Shown here piece by piece: positions 9,686 to 54,237 of a stretch of DNA of 64,000 nt. Made by a program: the position numbers and the translations under genes. The notes under the pieces are model-generated. The model ran no database searches, was not told the DNA's origin, and saw nothing but the letters and a program-made list of their open reading frames with translations. Each line of letters starts with the position of its first letter. Within the stretch, counting starts at the first letter, position 1. The DNA is taken from positions 15,748,001-15,812,000 of the forward strand of contig NC_135830.1 in the NCBI RefSeq assembly GCF_964213995.1, in the 5' to 3' direction. The DNA comes from Mustelus asterias (taxonomy: Eukaryota).

Positions 9686-10500
9686 AGCTGTTGTCCAGAG
9701 GATGAAGTTTGAGTCTGTGTGTGAAGTTTGAGTCTGTGGTGAAGTTTGAGTCTGTGGTGAAGCTACAAACAGAAGCTGTTCTGTTTCAAATCAAACTGCG
9801 GGACTTGGAAGAAAATGATGGGAAGAGATTTTGCAAAGTCCCCTCCCCCACTCCCTCAGCTGGCAGCCCAGCACGCAGGCGCAGAGAGCGCTGCTGAGCC
9901 GAGCTGTCCGGAACAGGCGCAGAGAGCGCTGCTGAGCCGAGCTGTCCGGAGCAGGCGCAGAGAGCGCTGCTCAGCCGAGCTGTCCGGAGCAGGCGCAGTG
10001 CGGCTGCCGCCAGCGGTCGCTCTCGATCTCTTTTTGGAGCAGCAGCCGCCGTAGAGAGATGGGGGAGGGGGCGATCACCGAGCGGCTTCTCGCTCTGGCC
10101 GGAGCCGCCAGCCGGTTGCCCGGAAACCTTGGCTCGACGAGGTGCAGAGGGAGGGGAACAATGGGTGGGGGCGGGGCTCCCGTGTCCGCTCGCCCGGGCC
10201 TGCGCACTGGAACCCGAGGATGTCACTGCGGTGCAGACTGATTCCTATTGGCTGATATAGGCAGGCCTCCATTGACATCACAATGCGGAAGTTGTCCAAT
10301 GAGCTTCAGAGTGAAACTTCCTCCTCTGGACAACATCAGGGAGGAAATCAATGTTTCCCCCTTTCCATTTCTTTTCTCATTCTGGGGGAAATTGGGGACT
10401 CGCAGCAACTGAAGGGAGAGGAAGTGAATTCAGGGAGGCTGCAGACTGGAACTATTACAGACGAACATCGGAATTAGGAGCAAGACGAGACCCAGGTATC
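9686..10500. promoter_or_regulatory. CpG island, likely bidirectional ZNF promoter with non-coding first exons
   Basis: CpG-rich, GC box gggcgggg, CCAAT boxes (attgg about 10247, ccaat about 10296), minus-strand donor (actcac 9680-9685) and plus-strand donor cag|gtatc near 10495. Confidence 0.6.
9876..10000. repeat. 38-bp GC-rich tandem repeat, about 3.3 copies
   Basis: Unit caggcgcagagagcgctgctgagccgagctgtccggag starts at 9876, 9914, 9952 and 9990. Confidence 0.9.
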
Positions 10501-20414: not shown

Positions 20415-20496
20415 CTGTGTGAAAGGAGAAGGTGGTAAGAATCGGAGTGGGAATGGCTTCTGTCGAGCCTGCTCCACTATTCATCATCAACCTCAT

Positions 20497-20850
20497 CTCC
20501 ACTTTCCCTGCCCTCCTCCCCATCCTTCAATTTCCAAAGATAACTCCACTTTCCCCGCACTCCTCCCCATCCCTCAATTCCCAAAGATATCCCCACTTTC
20601 CCCGCACTCAATTCCCAAAGATATCTCCACTTTCCCCGCACTCCTCCCCATCCCTCAATTCCCAAAGATATCCCCACTTTCCCCGCACTCCTCCCCATTC
20701 TTCAATTCCCAAAGATATCTCCACTTTACCCACAGTCTTCCCCCATCCCTCAATTCCCAAAGATATCCCCACTTTCCCCACACTCTTCCTCCTATCTCTC
20801 AATTCCCAAAGATATCCCCACTTTCCCTGCACTCCTCCCCATCCCTCATT
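20497..20850. repeat. About 47-bp C-rich minisatellite, about 7.5 copies, in EMC4 intron 4
   Basis: Unit tccccactttccccgcactcctccccatccctcaattcccaaagata. Confidence 0.9.
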
Positions 20851-27960: not shown

Positions 27961-28449
27961 GACATATTAAATAGAGCAGGAAAATACATGGGCATTGAAT
28001 GGAATCTGACTTCTCCAACTGGAGTCAATGGGAGCTGTCTTGAGAACACATTGTCTGGACACTATTTTCAATAAAATACTGGAACTCTGCATATCTCCCT
28101 GCACAGCACATTTCTCCATTCAGCTTGTTCCATTTTTGTACATGGTTCCCTCTGATTCCTGTCTCTGTGTCTCTCAGCCCGCAGTAATTTACCGTGCTGT
28201 CAGACAGCAGCTCGTGGATGGTTCCTCACTTTTCAAACTGTCGAATGATGCAGAAAATTAAGTCCCCATACCCTCTGCTCTAAAAACACTTCCGTAATTA
28301 GGGATGTGGATGAAGAAGTTAGGAGCTTTATCCTGGACTTGATGGTACAGCCGTAAGGAATATGAATGAGCTGTGCTCGAAAAACTCTAATTAATTGTAA
28401 CTGATTCTCCCTCAAACTGTGTCATTGTAACTGGCTCCTGTGAGACACG

Positions 28450-40151: not shown

Positions 40152-40446
40152 TGTTTGCTCCGCACCCACAGGGCTCCATCTGTTTGCTCCACACCCACAG
40201 GGCTCCATCTGTTTGCTCCGCACCCACAGGGCTCCATCTGTTTGCTCCGCACCCACAGGGCTCCATCTGTTTGCTCCGCACCCACAGGGCTCCATCTGTT
40301 TGCTCCGCACCCACAGGGCTCCATCTGTTTGCTCCGCACCCACAGGGCTCCATCTGTTTGCTCCGCACCCACAGGGCTCCATCTGTTTGCTCCGCACCCA
40401 CAGGGCTCCATCTGTTTGCTCCGCACCCACAGGGCTCCATCTGTTT
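40152..40446. repeat. 29-bp minisatellite, 10 near-perfect copies
   Basis: Unit tgtttgctccgcacccacagggctccatc, with one substitution in unit 2. Confidence 0.95.
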
Positions 40447-40519
40447 GAAGCCACAAACAGAAAGGTCCAGTTTTCTCCTGGAGTTTGACACAAAGCAGCT
40501 TTCACAATGATGCAGAGTT

Positions 40520-41870: not shown

Positions 41871-42201
41871 GACAGTCTTCTGTAGACCCAGACCGTGTGG
41901 CAGGTTCCCTTCTCCGAAGGATATCAGTGAATAAGTTGCATTTTTACAACAATCCAGCAGTTTTCATTGTCACTTTTTCCCAGTGACAGACGTACAAATG
42001 ACCAGATTAATTCAGTTCAATTTCACAAACTGCCTGTGTTTTTATGAGTTCTCTCTCACTCCCTTTTTTTCTGTTTTGAAACAGTTATACAGGGTTTTAG
42101 AAGAGCAGGATTTGCAGTCGGGAAATTGAAACGAAACATCACATCACAACCTGGTGGAGTTTTCCAATGTATCGTAACCTGAATATCATTTGATTTTGAA
42201 C

Positions 42202-43248
42202 ATGGAAGGAACAAGCACCGTTCACAGTGGGGAAAATCCATACACGTGTTCTGTGTGTGGACGAGGCTTCAGCCAATCATCTGACCTGTTGAAACACAAA
42301 TGCAGTCAATCCAGGAAGAAACCGTGGAAATGCAGGGATTGTGGGAAGGGATTCAAATCCCCGTCTGGCCTGGAAAGTCATTGGCTCAGTCACACTGGGG
42401 AGAAACCGTTCACGTGCTTCAAATGTGGGAAGGGATTCACTCGTCAATCCTACCTTCTGACACATCAGCGACTTCACACTGGGGAAAGGCCGTTCACCTG
42501 TTTTGTGTATGGGAAGGGATTCATTCAGTCATCTACCCTGTTGAATCACCAGCGAGTTCACACTGAGGAGAGACCAATTAAATGCTCAGACTGTGGGAAG
42601 TGTTACAAATGTTCTGGGGAACAGGTGCGCCATCAACGTGTTCACAGCAATGAGAGGCCATTCACCTGTTCCTTGTGTGGGAAAGGATTTACTCAGCAAT
42701 ACAAACTGCTGACACACCAGCGAGTTCACACTGATGAGAGACCTTTTACATGTCCAGACTGTGGAAAACACTTTAAAAGTTCCCAGGACTTGATGCAGCA
42801 TCAACTTGTTCACACTGATGAGAGACCGTTCAGATGCTCTCACTGTGGGTCTGCATTCAAGCGATCGTCTCACCTCACTGTACACCAGCAAATTCACACT
42901 GGGGAGAGGCTGTCCACCTGCCCTGAGTGTAGCAAAGGGTTTACTCAGTCATCCATCCTTCTGACACACCAGTGTGTTCAAACTGGGGGGAGGCCATTCA
43001 TCTGCTCTGAGTGTGGGAAGGGTTTCCCTTCCTCATCCAAACTTCTGATGCACCAGCACGTTCACACTGGGGAGAGACCGTTCACCTGCTCTGTGTGTGG
43101 GAAGGGTTTCACTCAGTCATCGAACCTGCTGACACACCAGCGAGTTCACACTGGGGAGAGGCCGTTCACATGTGCTGAATGTGGGAAGGGATTTGCTTAT
43201 TTTTCTGTACTGATGAGACACCAACAAGCTCACAAACAACGACAATGA
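42202..43248 (+). CDS. C2H2 zinc-finger protein, 12 fingers (3 degenerate)
   Basis: aacATGg start [14 protein letters not shown], open to TGA at 43248, acceptor tatacag at about 42091, aataaa at about 43356. Confidence 0.85.
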
Positions 43249-45747: not shown

Positions 45748-45760
45748 GTCACTAAGATTG

Positions 45761-46157
45761 AGGGGAGGTGATGGCCTAGTGGTATTAACACTAGACGGTT
45801 AATCCAGAAACTCAGCTAATGTTCTGGGTACCAGGTTTCAATCCCACCAGGGCAGATGGTGAAATCTGAATTCAATAAAAAAATATCTGGAATTAAGAAT
45901 TTACTGATGACCGTGAAACAATTGTCGCAAAAACCCATCTGGTTTAATGATGTCCTTTAGGGAAGGAAATCTGCCGTCCTTGCCTGGTCTGGCCTACATG
46001 GGACTGCAGAGCCACAGCAATGTGGTTGACTCTAAAATGTCCGAGCAAGCCACTCAGTTGTTCAAGAAGGCAGCTCATCACCACCTTCTCAAGGGCAACT
46101 TGCAATAAATGCTGGCCATGCAACAACATCCATGCCCCATAGATGAAATAAAAAAAG
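45761..46157 (+). mobile_element. tRNA-derived SINE (second family)
   Basis: Homologous to 5793-6125. Confidence 0.8.
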
Positions 46158-48288
46158 CTGCCTCTGTTGCTTCCCTTCCTCCCACGAGCCCATCCTTGAC
46201 CCCAGTGTCTTTGTTCCCCTCCTGCCCATCTCTCATTACAACTTCCAAAATCCCTGTCGTCTCCCAAATCTCTGCCCATATGTCCTGAAATTCCCTGTGT
46301 GAATCCCTCTGATTACATTTGTCTTTCGCACAGTATTAAACCAGCTCTTACCAAAGTCTCAAATTACTGCGTGAATATGACTGAGGTAAGCTATCTGTCA
46401 CTGTCCTTCTCAGCCAGTCTGCAGTTATTGACACCATTGACCAAACCATCTTCCTCCAGTGCCTCTCCATTGTTGTCCAGCTGGGTGGGACTGCACACTT
46501 CGGATTAATTTCTTATCTGATTATAGCCAGAGAATCACCGGCAGCCACTGTGATTATTACAGACAGAGAGCAAGTGAATAGAGGGAGCAAAGTAAATGGG
46601 GAAAAGAGACAGTGAGAGTGAATGGGATGGAAGTTCGTAAACTGAGACAAAGAGAAACAGATTGAGACAGAAAATGGGGTCAACATTGTTCCTAAGAGAT
46701 GAGATTAATGCTTTTCAAACCTTCCTGATCATTATAACTTATCAATTTCTGTAAAATATTTTGAGTGAATGTAACAAGGCCTGGATATGAGATTCTGAAA
46801 CTCCCTCCCTAACTGTCCAGATTAAAGGTGTTTGTTAAGGTCTGTCTCTCCAAACAAGGTTTTGACCATCCATCCTAATATTGTGCTCTGTGACCCAGTA
46901 ATTCTAGTTGCTGATCTATCAGGAATGGACTTGCTGCCGTCTGGAACAAAACTGTTTTCACCACTAAGGCTCCGCTGTGATGTAATAGTCTCTATGACAT
47001 CATCGCAGCAGGACTGGATGACATCATCAGTGTCCATTGTTTCTGAATGATCCACATCAATAACAACAGGAAATACTCATCAAGCTGAGCACATTATCTA
47101 GGCTGACACTGCAGTCTGACACTGAGGGACTGCTGCACTCTGACACACACTGTCCTTCACATGGAGCTTGTGGAGGCTCTGACCACAATCTTCCAATCCT
47201 CCTTATCGAGTAGTGGTGCCAAAAGGCTGAGAGATTGTAAATGTTACATCCCTGTTCAAAAAATTACAGAACAATCATCTTAACATCAGCGGTGGAGAAA
47301 AATGAAACCAATAATCTGGGGCGCAATCAACTGGTACTTGGAAAAGTGTGGATTCTTATTGTCAGCATTTTCTGTTTTAATATTGAAAACTTCCCTGGAT
47401 CTCAAGGCTGGGAAAGACATTCTGGAAGGTCATCCCCCCAACCCTCTCTCTATCCCTCCTCACATCCCTCCCTACAACAAGAACCATTCACTCTGCACAG
47501 CAGTTTCACCCTCATTCCCCCAGTTTGTATTCCAGCCTTTACCACATCCACTCTGCTCCCAGATACTTCACACCATTAGATATTACAATTCAAACTTTAT
47601 AATCTCTCCAATGTAATATTTGTTCATACAGCAGACAAATCATCAATTCCACTCCCACCCTGAGCTATGGGGATATATTTATACATTATCTCATTTCACA
47701 ATAAAACTCACACACTGAATTTCAGATTTGCTGCAGTTATTTTAATTTGCCCAGCAGATTATTTAGAGTGAGATTGACATCAACCCTTCATGGTCTCAGT
47801 CTGTCTCTGTGTTTGTGAGAGTGTCTGAGATAGTGTGTGTGTCTGAGCGTGTGTATGCATGAGTGTGTATCTGTGCGTACGTGTGTGTGTGTTTGTGTGA
47901 GATTATAGAAAGATAGAAACTAGAAGCAGGAGTAGGCCATTCGGCTCTTCGAGCCTGCTCCGCCATTCATTTTGATCATGGCTGATCATCGAATTCAACA
48001 TTCTGATCCCCCTTCTTCCCATACCTTTAGCCCCAAGAGCTATATCTAATTTATTCTTGGAATCATATGTATGTGTCTGCATTTTTCTGAGTATTTGTGT
48101 GTCTATGAGTTTGTCTGTATTTGTTTCCGAGATTGATATCAGTTATGAGAATAGATTCGTCTGCATTAAAATATATTCAAATAAAAATAATAGGAATAAG
48201 AAAAATACAGCAGCACAATCCTCCAACAAGATCCTTCAGTAATCTGAGACTTCAGTGATTTCCCAGGCAGAGGCCATTTACCTCACAT

Positions 48289-48304
48289 CGCCACAAGAGG
48301 GAGC
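48289..48304 (+). promoter_or_regulatory. CTCF-like motif
   Basis: cgccacaagagggagc compared with consensus CCASYAGRKGGCRS. Confidence 0.5.
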
Positions 48305-48352
48305 TCCCTCGCTGTGTTTGTGTGTTCACTGCAGCAGGAGCGGGTTCCATGA

Positions 48353-49908
48353 CACAGTGAAATGTAACAGAGCAGAAATCCAGGGGAACTGGATTAATTG
48401 TTGGATTACACAGTGATATGTCACAGAGCAGGAATCCAGGAGAACTGGATTAATTGTTAGATTACACAGTGATATGTTACAGAGCAGTAATCCAGGGGAA
48501 CTGGATTAATTGTTGGATTACACAGTGACATATTACAGAGCAGTAATCCAGGAGAACTGGATTAATTGTTAGATTACACAGTGATATTTTACAGAGCAGA
48601 AATCCAGGGGAACTGGATTAATTGTTAGATTACACAGTGATATGTTACAGAGCAGTAATCCAGGAGAACTGGATTAATTGTTGGATTACACAGTGATATG
48701 TTACAGAGCAGTAATCCAGGGAACTGGATTAATTGTTAGATTACACAGTGATATGTTACAGAGCAGAAATCCAGGGGAACTGGATTAATTGTTGGATTAC
48801 ACAGTGATATATTACAGAGCAGAAATTCAGGAGAACTGGATTAATTGTTGGATTACACAGTGATATGAAACAGAGCAGAAATCCAGGGGAACTGGATTAA
48901 TTGTTAGATTACACAGTGATATGTTACAGAGCAGTAAGCCAGGAGAACTGGATTAATTGTTAGATTACACAGTGATATGTTACAGAGCAGTAATCCAGGA
49001 GAACTGGATTAATTGTTGGATTACACAGTGATATGTAACAGAGCAGAAATCCAGGAGAACTGGATTAATTGTTAGATTACACAGTGATATGTTACAGAGC
49101 AGAAATCCAGGAGAACTTGATTCATTGTTGGATTACACAGTGATATGTAACAGAGCAGAAATCCAGGAGAACTGGATTAATTGTTAGATTACACAGTGAT
49201 ATGTTACAGAGCAGAAATCCAGGAGAACTTGATTCATTGTTGGATTACACAGTGATATGTAACAGAGCAGAAATCCAGGAGAACTGGATTAATTGTTAGA
49301 TTACACAGTGATATGTTACAGAGCAGAAATCCAGGAGAACTTGATTCATTGTTGGATTACACAGTGATATGTAACAGAGCAGAAATCCAGGAGAACTGGA
49401 TTAATTGTTGGATTACACAGTGATATGTTACAGAGCAGAAATCCAGGAGAACTTGATTCATTGTTGGATTACACAGTGATATGTAACAGAGCAGAAATCC
49501 AGGGAACTGGATTAATTGTTAGATTACACAGTGATATGTTACAGAGCAGCAATCCAGGAGAACTGGATTAATTGTTAGATTACACAGTGACATATTACAG
49601 AGCAGTAATCCAGGGGAACTGGATTAATTGTTAGATTACACAGTGATATGTTACAGAGCAGTAATCCAGGGAACTGGATTAATTGTTAGATTACACAGTG
49701 ATATGTTACAGAGCAGAAATCCAGGGGAACTGGATTAATTGTTAGATTACACAGTGATATGTTACAGAGCAGTAATCCAGGGAACTGGATTAATTGTTAG
49801 ATTACACAGTGATATGTTACAGAGCAGAAATCCAGGAGAACTGGATTAATTGTTGGATTACACAGTGATATGTTACAGAGCAGAAATCCAGGAGAACTGG
49901 ATTAATTG
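48353..49908 (+). repeat. 56-bp tandem array, 28 copies, each with CACAGTG-12nt-GCAG(A/T)AATC and a hairpin
   Basis: Heptamers run from 48353 to 49861 at 56-bp spacing (four at 55 bp). Stem aatccag/ctggatt. Confidence 0.95.
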
Positions 49909-52149
49909 TGTGTGTGTGTGTGTCCCTGGGCACAGTTCCCAGAGAGTTTAAAATCTTCTTACAGCTAGCCAATTCCTGATCCAAACCGCTAAATCACCCT
50001 CAATCCCATGCCTCCGTATATTCTGCAATAGCTTAACCGTGAGGTTAGAGTGTTAAAATCTGAAATAAAACAGTCAACGCCACAAAGAGTCAACAGGCCC
50101 GGCAGTTTGTGTGGAGGCAGAAACAGAGTGAAACACACAGTTAAACATCCATATGAATCAAGAGCAGCAGTAGACCTTTGGGCTGCTCTGCTCCAGATAA
50201 GATCCCAGCTGATCTGACTGTGACCAAAACTCCACTTTCCTCTCAAGAATTCAATGAATCAGCCTTAAAAATATTCAATGACTCTCTCTCCACTGCTCTC
50301 TGGGGAAGAGAATTCCACAGACCAAAGACCCTCTGAGAGAAAAAAAAATCTCATTCTCTCTCTTTCAGACGTCTTAAATCCGCTCGTTCTCCGGAGCCAC
50401 ACAGGGAAAGCCAGACCCGTGAAGAAGGGAGAGAGGGAGGTGGAGAAGAACAAAATGAAAAATCTGCAAACTGATAACATGATTCACAGCCCAAGACCAA
50501 AACGAGTGTTAATGGGACAAGTAAAGACACAAAAGATTATCTGGATGAGGTGTAAATAGCCGGTTAGCAATAGTCCGAATGCAAAGTAAAGAAAACAAGA
50601 GGGAAATGAGGTGAAAAAAGCAACAACGAAACACAGAACACACTGGGGGCAGAGATTGTGGTGTAAAATTGTTGAGCTCAGTTTTGTTCTGAAGGCTGTA
50701 AAGTGTCTCTTTTAGTTGCGGGAAATAATATATTTCCCAGTTCCGATGACAGGTCACATTCAGTCTGTTTCTCTCTCCACAGAGGCTGCCTGACTTGTTG
50801 AGTATTTCCAGCGTTTCCTGCTTTATGTCACAGAGAATGTCGAAGAATTGTTACACCCGGAACAGATGTCTCTTCCTCGGGACACTCCAGCTCGGGTCAG
50901 GGTGGGGGGATAATGTTCACTGTTTTATATTTGTGTCTGGTGCGAATAATACCTTAAATTAAATGGAGAAGTTTTTTTAAACTGAAGAGAGTAACTGAAA
51001 CTGACTTTAAACAACGTTAACAAGCCAGGGCTGCTGGAGAAACATTTTGGGATTTGTGAGCAGTCAGTTCCGGCTGGTTTGAAGTGAAATTCTGTCGGTG
51101 CTGCGGCAAATCTGAACTCAAACCAGATAAACTGGAACCGCTGGGTTAGAGATTCCGGGTGTTGGGATGTGGAGGCTGGGGGAGGGGGAGATGGCGGTAA
51201 GACTCTGAGCCTGAGTTTAGACAGGGTGAGCGGGGTAAAGGGGAGGAATGACAGAGTTAATGTGGGAGTCAGGGACAATAGCAGAAGGTGGGAAGCTCTG
51301 GAAAGGAGCAACCAGGGTAAAGGCCATCAAAGAATGCTTGTTTAAATGAAGATAAAAGCAAAATACTGCGGGTGCTGGAATCTGAAACAGAAAATGCTGG
51401 AAATCTCAGCGGATCTGACTGCATCTGTGGTGAGCGAATAGAGTTAATGCTTCCAGTCTGGATGATCATAGGTGCTGCCAGAAATGCTGAGGTTCTCCAG
51501 CATTTTCTGTTTGTGTTTAACTGAAGGTTCAGCAGGGAAACAAGCAGCGATTTCACACACACTAAACCCAGGGAGAGGGGGTGACCCAGGATAAGGGACA
51601 GGCGCAGCTCAGTGAGGCTCAGCAAAGTCCAGCAATCTGTCCACATTGAGAGCTTAGAGCGCCAAGGGGGAGGGGAAGGACAAACTATTTGGGACACAGC
51701 AGGAGGTCACCCCTCCCCCCATTCTGTGGTTCCACAGACCCTCCCACACCTGGGCAAGGTTGGCTCGAGGTGCAGGAAGCTGCAAGCTGAGAGGCTGAGC
51801 TGTGAACTGGGCCGGGTTGGGGGTTTGAGTGACAGTCCTGGGGTTATATCAGGACAGGAACTGCCACAGGTTCCCCCTTTTTCCTGGGACGTTTCAGTGG
51901 AGCTGTGTTGGTGAGTGTTTGTAATCTCTGTCTCACTGTCTCGGTAATGGGGGTGGGTTGTAGATTGCTGTGAGTGTTAGACTAAATAACCTCTCCTCAT
52001 GCTGCCAGTTCCAGTCTGCAGACTCCATTTCTCAGTCCAGTTTGCTGCTCTGTCTCTGTCTCTCTGTACTTTGCTGCAGTGCTCCACATTCTGAGCAACA
52101 TCCAGCCCATTGTTATCACCCGAAATTTGCTGCAAACTCCCTTCACTGT

Positions 52150-52950
52150 GACACAGTGGTTAGCACTGCTGCCTCACAACGCCAGGGTTCGACTCCAGCC
52201 GTGGGTGTGTGACTGTCTGTGTGGAGTTTACACAGTAAGAAGTCTCACAATATCAGGTTAAATTCCAATAAATTCATTTGGAATCAATGCAAATTACTGC
52301 GGATTCTGGAATCTGAAACCAAAAGAGAAAATGCTGGAAAATCTCAGCAGGTCTGGCAGCATCTGTAAAGAGAGAAAAGAACTGACATTTTGAGTCCAGA
52401 TGACCGTTTGTCAAAGTTGCTCCTTCATCAGCACTCCAAAAGCTCGTGGTTCCAGATAACCTGGTGTTGTGAGACTTCTTACTGTGCCCACCCCAGTCCA
52501 ACATCTCCACCTCAGGTGTGGAGTTTGCACAATCTCCCCCTGTCTGTGTGCATTTCCTCTGGGTGCTCTGGTTTCCTCTCACTGCCCAAAGATGTGCAGG
52601 TTCGGTGAATTGACCATGTTAAATTTGTCCCTTAGTGTCCCAAGATGTGTAGGGTCTAATTTGATTTGTTATTGTTGCGCGTTCTGGGATACAGTGAAAA
52701 TTATTTCTTGCGTGTTATACAGAAAAAAGTCATAACTTGGTAAAGTACACAGGGGGAAAGGAACAGAGTCGGGTACAGAATATATTGTTGCGGTTGCAGG
52801 CAGGGTGAAGAAAAAGGTCAGGATGGGGAATAGCAGAGTAAGTGCGTGGGGTTACTGGGATAGGGGGTGAGCCTGGGAAAGATGCTCTCAGAGTCAGTAC
52901 AGACTCGATGGGTAAAATGGCCTCTTTCTGCACTGGAAGGATTCTATGAT
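52150..52950 (+). mobile_element. HE1 SINE disrupted by Penelope-derived fragments (about 52234-52512)
   Basis: The HE1 head gtgtggagttt resumes after agtaagaagtctcac...gtgagacttcttact inverted ends. Confidence 0.7.
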
Positions 52951-53020: not shown

Positions 53021-53371
53021 CGCCATTAGTCAGTGCGTGACTCTAGATGTTTCATTATAGACTGAGGGCAAGTCAGCAACCGGAGCCCTCAATTCTGTTT
53101 GTAACTCTCACAGGCTGCCTAGTCTGCTGAATATCTCGACGATACTCAGTTCCTGGCCTCCTGCGTGTTTTATTTATTGTTGCTTCGGTCTGGATTCTAT
53201 TCATCACCTGTCTCTATGGGTTCACTCTCAATCCCCTTTTTTCTGTTTTAAATCAGTTTCACAGGGACTAGAAGGGGACGATTTGCAGTCAGGAAACTGA
53301 AAGTAAATATCATATCAGGAACTGCCAGAGTCGTCTAATTTATCATAACTGAATATCAGTGGATTTTGAAC

Positions 53372-54237
53372 ATGGAAGGAAAAAGCACTATTCCCAGTGG
53401 GGAGAAACCGTACACAGGTTCTGTGTGTGGACGAGGCTTCAGCCGATCCTCTGGCCTGTCAAAACGTAAGTGCAATCACTCCTTGGAAAAACTGTGGAAA
53501 TGTGTGAACTGTGGGAAGGAATTTAATTACCCATCCCAGCTGGAAATTCATCGGCGCAGTCACACTGGGGAGAGGCCATTCACCTGCTCTGAGTGTGGGA
53601 AGGGATTCACTCAGTCATCCAATCTACTTGCTCATCAACGAGTTCACACTGGGGAGAGACCTTTTAAATGCTCAGACTGTGGGAAGTGCTTCAAAAGTTA
53701 TTGGGAACTGATGTCCCACCAACGTGTTCACACTGATGAGAGACTGTTCAGGTGCTCTCACTGTGGGATTGGGTTCAAGCATTCACATAACCTCACTGTA
53801 CACCAGCGAATTCACACTGGGGAGAGGCCATTCACCTGCTTCGAGTGTGGAAAGGGATTCACTCGGTCATCCCAACTAATGACACACCAGCGTATTCACA
53901 CTGGGGAGAGACCTATTAAATGCTCTGACTGAGAAGTGCTCTAAAAGTTCTGATGAACTGACTTCCCATCAACGTGTTCACACTGATGAGAGACCATTCA
54001 GGTGCTCTCACTGTGGGACTGGGTTCAGGCGATCATATGACCTCATTCTACACCAGCGCACCCACACTGGGGAAAGGCCATTCACCTGCTCTGAATGTGG
54101 GAAGGGATTCATTCAGTCCTCCAGCCTGCTGAGACACAAGCGAGCTCACACTGGGGAAACGCCATTCACCTGCTCTGAGAGTGGGAAGAGATTCACTCAG
54201 TCATCCTACCTGCTGAGACACGAAAGAATTCACTAGT
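53372..54237 (+). pseudogene. C2H2 ZNF truncated by a frameshift/stop at about 53930
   Basis: 5 intact fingers, then tctgacTGAgaagtgc. About 4 more fingers lie out of frame downstream. Confidence 0.75.

Follow-up and report, generated by a model that had tools for sequence, protein, structure and literature searches.

What accounts for a tandem run of sequences resembling V(D)J recombination signals (RSS) in the genome of the shark Mustelus asterias? The window analysed, a stretch of 64,000 nucleotides, contains C2H2 zinc-finger exons and LINE fragments, and between 48353 and 49909 all 28 of 28 units open with the heptamer CACAGTG (table 1). Units are spaced by 56 nt in 24 cases and by 55 nt in four, and after an interval of 12 nt the heptamer is followed by the 9-mer GCAGAAATC in 16 of the 28, by GCAGTAATC in eight and by a single variant in each of the remaining four; nonamer position 5 is A in 17. 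TRF reports period 56, 27.9 copies and 93% matches, and the head-to-tail units fall within the 10-100 bp size range of VNTRs. At a 23-nt spacing only two to three of the nine nonamer letters match, so the unit lacks a 23-RSS. The initial annotation, which had counted 28 units with a perfect CACAGTG, a 12-nt spacing and about 16 copies of the main nonamer, is accurate as a description. Its further remark that indels occur only outside the RSS holds for the window array, where the four deletions, all in the G-run behind the nonamer, produce the four 55-nt units, but not for the other 56-bp arrays, in which spacer and heptamer length vary: L129 has a 2-nt loss, one of 1420 units has lost 8 nt of the nonamer, and L139-L145 show 9-11-nt spacers together with heptamer deletions. 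In the window itself the position of the indels says little, because the same G-run deletion occurs four times and the non-RSS part makes up half of the unit. Unrelated minisatellites are present at 40152-40447 (29-bp x10 at 99%) and at 9875-9998 and 20495-20848 (38-bp x3 and ~47-bp), and young tandem repeats are thus common in the window.

Table 1. Features of the array and its surroundings, in window coordinates.
Feature	Positions	Strand	Basis
C2H2 zinc-finger exon upstream of the array	42178..43248	+	context
Upstream duplicated block common to type-A arrays, ~2.6 kb, 96-97% identical; start approximate	45750..48348	+	
CTCF-like motif, 12 of 14 letters of the consensus; 59-60 nt before the array start at type-A and type-B loci	48291..48304	+	putative site
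56-bp minisatellite (VNTR), 28 heptamer-bearing units, the last partial (49 nt)	48349..49909	+	repeat analysis
4-nt lead equal to the last 4 nt of the unit; ATGA here, ATTA in most paralogues	48349..48352	+	putative microhomology of the first duplication junction
First cryptic 12-RSS: heptamer 48353-48359, spacer 48360-48371, nonamer-like 48372-48380	48353..48380	+	scored against authentic shark 12-RSS
Recurrence of the cryptic 12-RSS every 55-56 nt, final heptamer at 49861		+	
(GT)n microsatellite closing the array on its native 3' side; follows the single unit of the one-unit allele as well	49908..49923	+	
Downstream duplicated block common to type-A arrays, 2.0-3.3 kb, 96-98% identical; end approximate	49924..52200	+	
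C2H2 zinc-finger exon downstream of the array	53339..54233	+	context

Thirty-four further arrays were retrieved beside the window array, from loci chosen by the presence of an array, which makes it one of at least 35 arrays of a single minisatellite family genome-wide. A genome search with the unit gave at least 318 matches (38 of 262 candidates scored), and the strict unit pattern is found in at least 3157 units and 0 times in the control, a total inflated by haplotype duplicates, with L021 equalling the window at 99.3-99.9%. The upstream flank of the window is common to nine retrieved arrays, seven of them over 1.6-2.6 kb at 96-97%; others have a paralogous flank, and the duplicated block has been multiplied across many contigs. 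The unit is also present, with signs of tandem copies, in contigs from runs labelled as five different organisms. Elsewhere in the genome, a two-unit orphan copy without the usual flanks lies beside a LINE on a 160-Mb contig (L157; G000:C3, ~28.66 Mb), and two opposed arrays of the family lie 2.5 kb apart at L029 (G000:C513, 255.3-259.6 kb).

The flanks provide the clearest clue to how the array arose. A flank-only search recovered 1, 2, 3, 4, 6 and up to 19 units between identical flanks. Fully contained arrays of 1-19 units occur at 20 loci (two of which are the same place) and the longest retrieved array has ~131 units, a range of 1 to ~131 that applies among paralogous copies within one assembly and not between individuals. 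One-unit alleles are found at L113/L146, with the same flanks as the window array, and at L140; the one-unit form displays the ancestor, 49 nt between flank and (GT)n run. Because the same flanks enclose 1 to ~131 units, the 28 signals represent a single ancestral sequence that was amplified. Two copies of TGGATTA are present in the unit, and its closing ATTA recurs in the native flank immediately ahead of the first heptamer. We infer from this arrangement that the founding event was a template switch at short repeats; the chance that a blunt cut at the heptamer edge would yield those four nucleotides is about 1/256. Non-native array ends are scattered along the unit (positions 4, 8, 9, 20, 21, 23, 24, 29, 33, 35, 39 and 47 among others), some with microhomology.

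We propose that a single sequence, pre-existing in a duplicated immunoglobulin/T-cell-receptor/zinc-finger block, would have given rise to the array, with the first repeat formed through template switching at the short internal TGGATTA repeats and the ATTA shared with the native flank, and later expansion and homogenisation brought about by slippage, unequal exchange or conversion. Homogenisation would keep young copies alike, and old short arrays would decay evenly. Among the options raised in the initial annotation, the last, a chance motif amplified once, fits best. The array is thus probably, in our judgement, a passenger VNTR of a dispersed 56-bp family, bearing weak cryptic 12-RSS without a selected role. 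The facts that count against this reading are that such likeness to an RSS is uncommon for one 56-mer, that young arrays keep the heptamer and the 12-nt spacing, and that the location is one where RAG works.

The same flanks bear on the suggestion that the unit is the amplified terminal inverted repeat of a RAG/Transib-type transposon. The ends of RAG-family transposons start with an RSS-like heptamer, and the unit does begin with CACAGTG. However, no inverted partner is found in 46-52 kb, the heptamer lies inside a continuous duplicated block with no insertion boundary marked by a 5-bp target duplication, and the one-unit alleles, in which the native flank is continuous, contradict such an origin. 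A genome search with PF12940, a strict first pass that can miss weak copies, gave one RAG1-family match, on another contig. A transposon end, as the initial annotation had considered, is therefore scarcely credible.

To what extent the unit resembles a working signal was assessed with a weight matrix derived from this genome's own J signals, used in place of RIC12 (threshold -38.81). J segments were gathered by coding features and heptamer only, yielding 73 distinct segments in 22 families, of which 17 were used and five left out (nonamers of 3/9 or less, mostly heptamer mis-calls). Leave-one-out scores of authentic J 12-RSS range from 10.8 to 28.6 bits in 16 of the 17 families; the remaining family, an outlier, falls to -12.1. 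With 10.0-13.5 bits the ten most frequent array units sit at the bottom edge of the authentic range, above one to four of the 17 leave-one-out scores. The scores of the four most frequent units are equalled or exceeded at 3-11 of the 2561 CAC sites that serve as background elsewhere in the window, a density of about one per 6-20 kb. Scoring against authentic shark signals, which the initial annotation had advocated with RIC-12, thus places the units above most of the background and at the low end of the real ones. An earlier matrix built from 11 V families, mostly 23-RSS, had given 14 and 36 of 16,496, values that are lower bounds (canonical nonamers were masked in the background and 4 V sites skipped) and are superseded by those of the J matrix. 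On sequence grounds the unit would be a borderline but credible cryptic 12-RSS. In human DNA, RIC-passing 12-RSS occur about once per kb (PMC2896083). One perfect 12-RSS, at C71 18.37 Mb, was considered as a chance match and rejected as such, since it belongs to a J.

The rarity of this likeness can be gauged in two ways. Among 62,239 overlapping, tandemised 56-mers of the window, 2053 contain CACAGTG, 59 add a nonamer of at least 5/9 at 12 nt and 16 one of at least 6/9; among 20,000 dinucleotide shuffles of the unit, 17 reach at least 5/9 and 3 at least 6/9 behind a perfect heptamer. The RSS likeness is in the upper tail for a single 56-mer, roughly 1 in 300 to 1 in 5000 by criterion, and despite the 28 copies it amounts to one draw that was spotted in hindsight.

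The initial annotation had taken A5-A7 as the critical part of the nonamer. This is no strict rule in this shark, because authentic nonamers include G4, T5 and G5 forms, e.g., ACAGAAACC, TCAGAAACC and ACAGTAACT. All IgM VH signals displayed (L081-L106) have G5, and G5 or T5 is found in 4 of the 17 J families (J signals L163-L221). A non-A base at nonamer position 5 was for a time held to be a decisive argument against function; given the authentic T5 and G5 forms and the near-equal scores of the variants this was dropped, and the position is now read as giving no sign of selection for A5.

These comparisons raise the possibility that the arrays, although incidental, are a real RAG substrate, joined in lymphocytes to neighbouring V or D 23-RSS with wasted rearrangements, V deletion or a bias in V usage as the outcome. 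The unit scores within the low end of the authentic J 12-RSS, and authentic nonamers are as tolerant as just described. In a list of the top 1000 nonamers predicted to be functional from a mouse-cell screen (PMC12711392, Table S2), two one-mismatch neighbours of the A-form nonamer are present, and the A and T variants fit the purine-A/T-purine rule of the same paper; the three array nonamers are absent from that list, but so is the authentic shark VH nonamer. A further point against is spacer position 5, which matters most in mouse screens (PMC212687) and is G in 1325 of 1419 array units, whereas the kappa signal and the two IgH D 5' signals have A there.

We next consider whether the signals are preserved as such. 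In young arrays (1420 units in 34 arrays) the heptamer is perfect in 1381 of 1420 units and the 12-nt spacing is nearly always kept, and most other columns of the unit are equally uniform. The number of different substitution alleles per position, which cannot exceed 3, is 1.86 in the heptamer, 2.33 in the spacer, 1.89 in the nonamer and 2.11 outside. The most variable column of the whole unit is nonamer position 5 (T 817, A 317, G 271, C 14), which drifts between arrays, A being present in 266 of 620 type-A units and in 51 of 799 elsewhere. Four older arrays with 19 full units show substitutions at 23/128 heptamer positions (18%), 23/177 in the spacer (13%), 21/149 in the nonamer (14%) and 59/494 outside (12%), and keep a perfect heptamer in 4 of 22 units, with deletions present in both heptamer and spacer. 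Fisher tests against the outside positions give p values of 0.08 (heptamer more, not less, diverged) and 0.48, in a comparison of modest power, these four arrays being interrelated and so not four independent trials. With modest weight, then, there is no RSS-specific protection: older arrays lose the heptamer and the spacer length as freely as other bases. A focused comparison of contigs from the five-organism runs found differences only at two spacer positions and none at the heptamer or nonamer, in material that, owing to an 80% cut-off and to short contigs, misses divergent copies and so leans towards conservation.

Such even decay bears directly on the idea of a RAG decoy or landing pad, selected in the receptor complex or the germline and perhaps anchored by the adjacent CTCF-like motif. 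Thousands of units do lie near real segments, the motif precedes the array at type-A and type-B loci alike, and the unit is present in several related organisms. Yet 1 to 131 copies are found within the same flanks, the old arrays decay evenly, many arrays have lost the CTCF-like flank, the base at nonamer position 5 (A, T or G) drifts from array to array, and arrays face either way with respect to V. A maintained landing pad or decoy, one of the roles envisaged in the initial annotation, is highly improbable in a family with no RSS-specific conservation. A CTCF-like motif was also observed ~25-30 nt behind the nonamer of the 23-RSS of one TCR V family (L140, L147, L149).

The genomic neighbourhood is nevertheless one in which a 12-RSS could find a partner. 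The window array is located in the IgH/TCR-alpha-delta complex. Its contig holds 11 of 48 IgM VH pattern matches and a TCR J cluster 2.6 Mb away, and TCR-type V segments lie just past the right end of the window, two of which retain an intact 23-RSS (~67.8 and ~72.9 kb when the window numbering is continued), 18 and 23 kb from the array. This combination of IgM VH clusters, TCR V genes and TCR J cluster matches the description of elasmobranchs as having IgH and TCR-alpha-delta linked in one complex (Flajnik et al. 2025; PMC12227049), a report whose main text contains no "ZNF" by word search and in which no mention of the 56-bp repeat was met. Among array-bearing contigs, 18 of 29 carry V or J genes, and a complete V end lies 1.3-4.3 kb from the array in 6 of the 35 ten-kb array loci, in both orientations. 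Since a 12/23 partner is within reach, the RAG idea of the initial annotation is more reasonable than the window alone suggested, and the further copies and nearby 23-RSS that it had proposed to look for do exist, as at least 35 arrays and the two V signals. A weak, broken V-like remnant (E 2.8e-4, internal stops) is found among the zinc-finger genes at 28219-28440 of the window, on the minus strand.

Germline joining in sharks has been attributed to RAG and is infrequent (PMC2193156); a word search of that paper for signal joints found none. In agreement with the germline RAG activity invoked by the initial annotation, footprints are present in this assembly at authentic signals, and these serve as positive controls. 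A precise signal joint, in which the 23-RSS of a kappa J is fused heptamer to heptamer with the 12-RSS of a kappa V, follows an intact V after 628 nt and precedes an intact J by 1.4 kb (L154; G000:C8, ~50,402,778, minus strand), which suggests an inherited inversional or inter-cluster RAG event. Of 16 VH loci, three carry a join, D to D in one and D to J in two, and joined V-J or V-D-J genes number five among 30 V-set loci. At one of the 16 VH loci (L081; G000:C138, ~217.4-218.4 kb, minus strand) an IgM-type VH with its 23-RSS is followed by the core of the IgM D1, fused directly to a different D with another 23-RSS, and then by a J with FGNGT, of TCR type; this looks like a fixed IgH-to-TCR-delta trans-rearrangement. 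Two others (L086 and L087; G000:C143 and C971) are IgM clusters with D2 pre-joined to JH, possibly haplotype copies of one.

The arrays are devoid of comparable traces. Genome-wide, two signal-joint patterns with an array unit gave 0 and 0 matches, and a V-coding-joint pattern gave 9, of which the 7 loci inspected are all array-internal variants and the other 2 overlap inspected loci, leaving no array joint. All 3010 heptamer occurrences in the examined loci (overlapping and redundant) are preceded by the unit tail or the native flank and none by foreign DNA; an assembly-based search of this kind shows inherited joints only, somatic cutting being invisible in an assembly. Two candidate junctions were rejected on inspection: at SINE-bounded arrays the heptamer-like letters are the SINE's own tail, and the phase-1 junction of L048 is native flank with a substitution. 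The RAG fragile site proposed in the initial annotation is therefore not borne out at any examined locus, and RAG cutting is not an explanation for the existence of the array.

Whether lymphocyte RAG nonetheless uses the arrays is a distinct matter. Besides the scores and nonamers given above, 23-RSS partners are within kilobases, the IgH/TCR-alpha-delta complex commonly undergoes long-range trans-rearrangement (PMC12227049), and cryptic signals of the mouse gamma-satellite are cut in RAG-expressing cells (PMC2193808); set against these, none of at least 3157 units shows a germline joint. We regard an incidental RAG substrate with such consequences for V genes as unlikely. In a stronger version, thousands of RAG-cleavable array 12-RSS would pair with V or D 23-RSS in lymphocytes, and array length would tune V usage or drive turnover of V and zinc-finger clusters, which we find very doubtful. 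If the arrays served in this way, the length of a repeat would act as an inherited control on the immune repertoire, a notion of which we found no description in the literature searched.

In an alternative scenario, the proto-unit was an authentic 12-RSS of a lost J or D, which decayed and was later amplified; the likeness would then be by descent and the array still a passenger. The location in the receptor complex agrees with this, as do the first 10 nt of the unit, identical to an authentic kappa V signal, the lead unit of nine type-B arrays, which has a one-mismatch heptamer, a kappa-like spacer start and an 8/9 nonamer at 10 nt, and the native flank, which resembles a J tail on the minus strand. 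However, when the flank was compared with the coding sequence of the 17 J families, scores as good as the best were obtained in 50 and 48 of 300 shuffled sequences, and in 62 and 83 of 300 40-mers drawn at random from the genome, so that the flank is no closer to J coding sequence than the controls. The spacer agrees with any J spacer at 5/12 positions at most, no V end or V coding sequence adjoins an array, and by eye no second opposed RSS, as expected for a D, is seen in the flank. The 8/9 nonamer form looks derived, because older lead units carry weaker nonamers and spacers of 9-12 nt. Descent from a decayed signal is, all in all, improbable.

Minisatellite or VNTR families spread by segmental duplication are founded on short direct repeats, have an extreme range of copy number and interspersed variant units, and travel with their flanks; the 56-bp family shares all these features and differs only in its RSS-like content and its location. 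Authentic 12-RSS of this genome (TCR J, IgH D, kappa V) resemble the array units in having a heptamer, a 12-nt spacing and a nonamer that falls within tolerated limits, but the units have no adjoining coding segment, a low score, a tandem arrangement, no conservation above their surroundings and no germline joints. A repeat with RSS-like content has a parallel in the mouse gamma-satellite, a tandem unit with a near-threshold cryptic RSS that works, for which a link to a RAG transposon, a remodelling site and a harmless sink have been put forward as ideas (Cowell et al. 2003; PMC2193808). That unit is 234 bp long, with 23-type signals at which cutting was shown; the shark repeat is a dispersed 56-bp minisatellite with putative 12-type signals and a perfect heptamer, set among real V genes. 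By analogy, purified RAG would probably nick some of the shark units. The 56-bp family joins a known kind, that of gamma-satellite-like cryptic-RSS repeats; what is new is the 12-type signal, the perfect heptamer and the position among real V genes. Titles and abstract openings yielded no literature on a 56-bp shark repeat.

The perfect heptamer in every copy reflects recent amplification, and not 28 independent signals. The repeat family is worth annotating in the shark receptor complex, where several thousand borderline 12-RSS, kilobases from real 23-RSS, constitute a natural test of the stringency with which shark RAG tells real signals from cryptic ones where an open locus holds many clusters.
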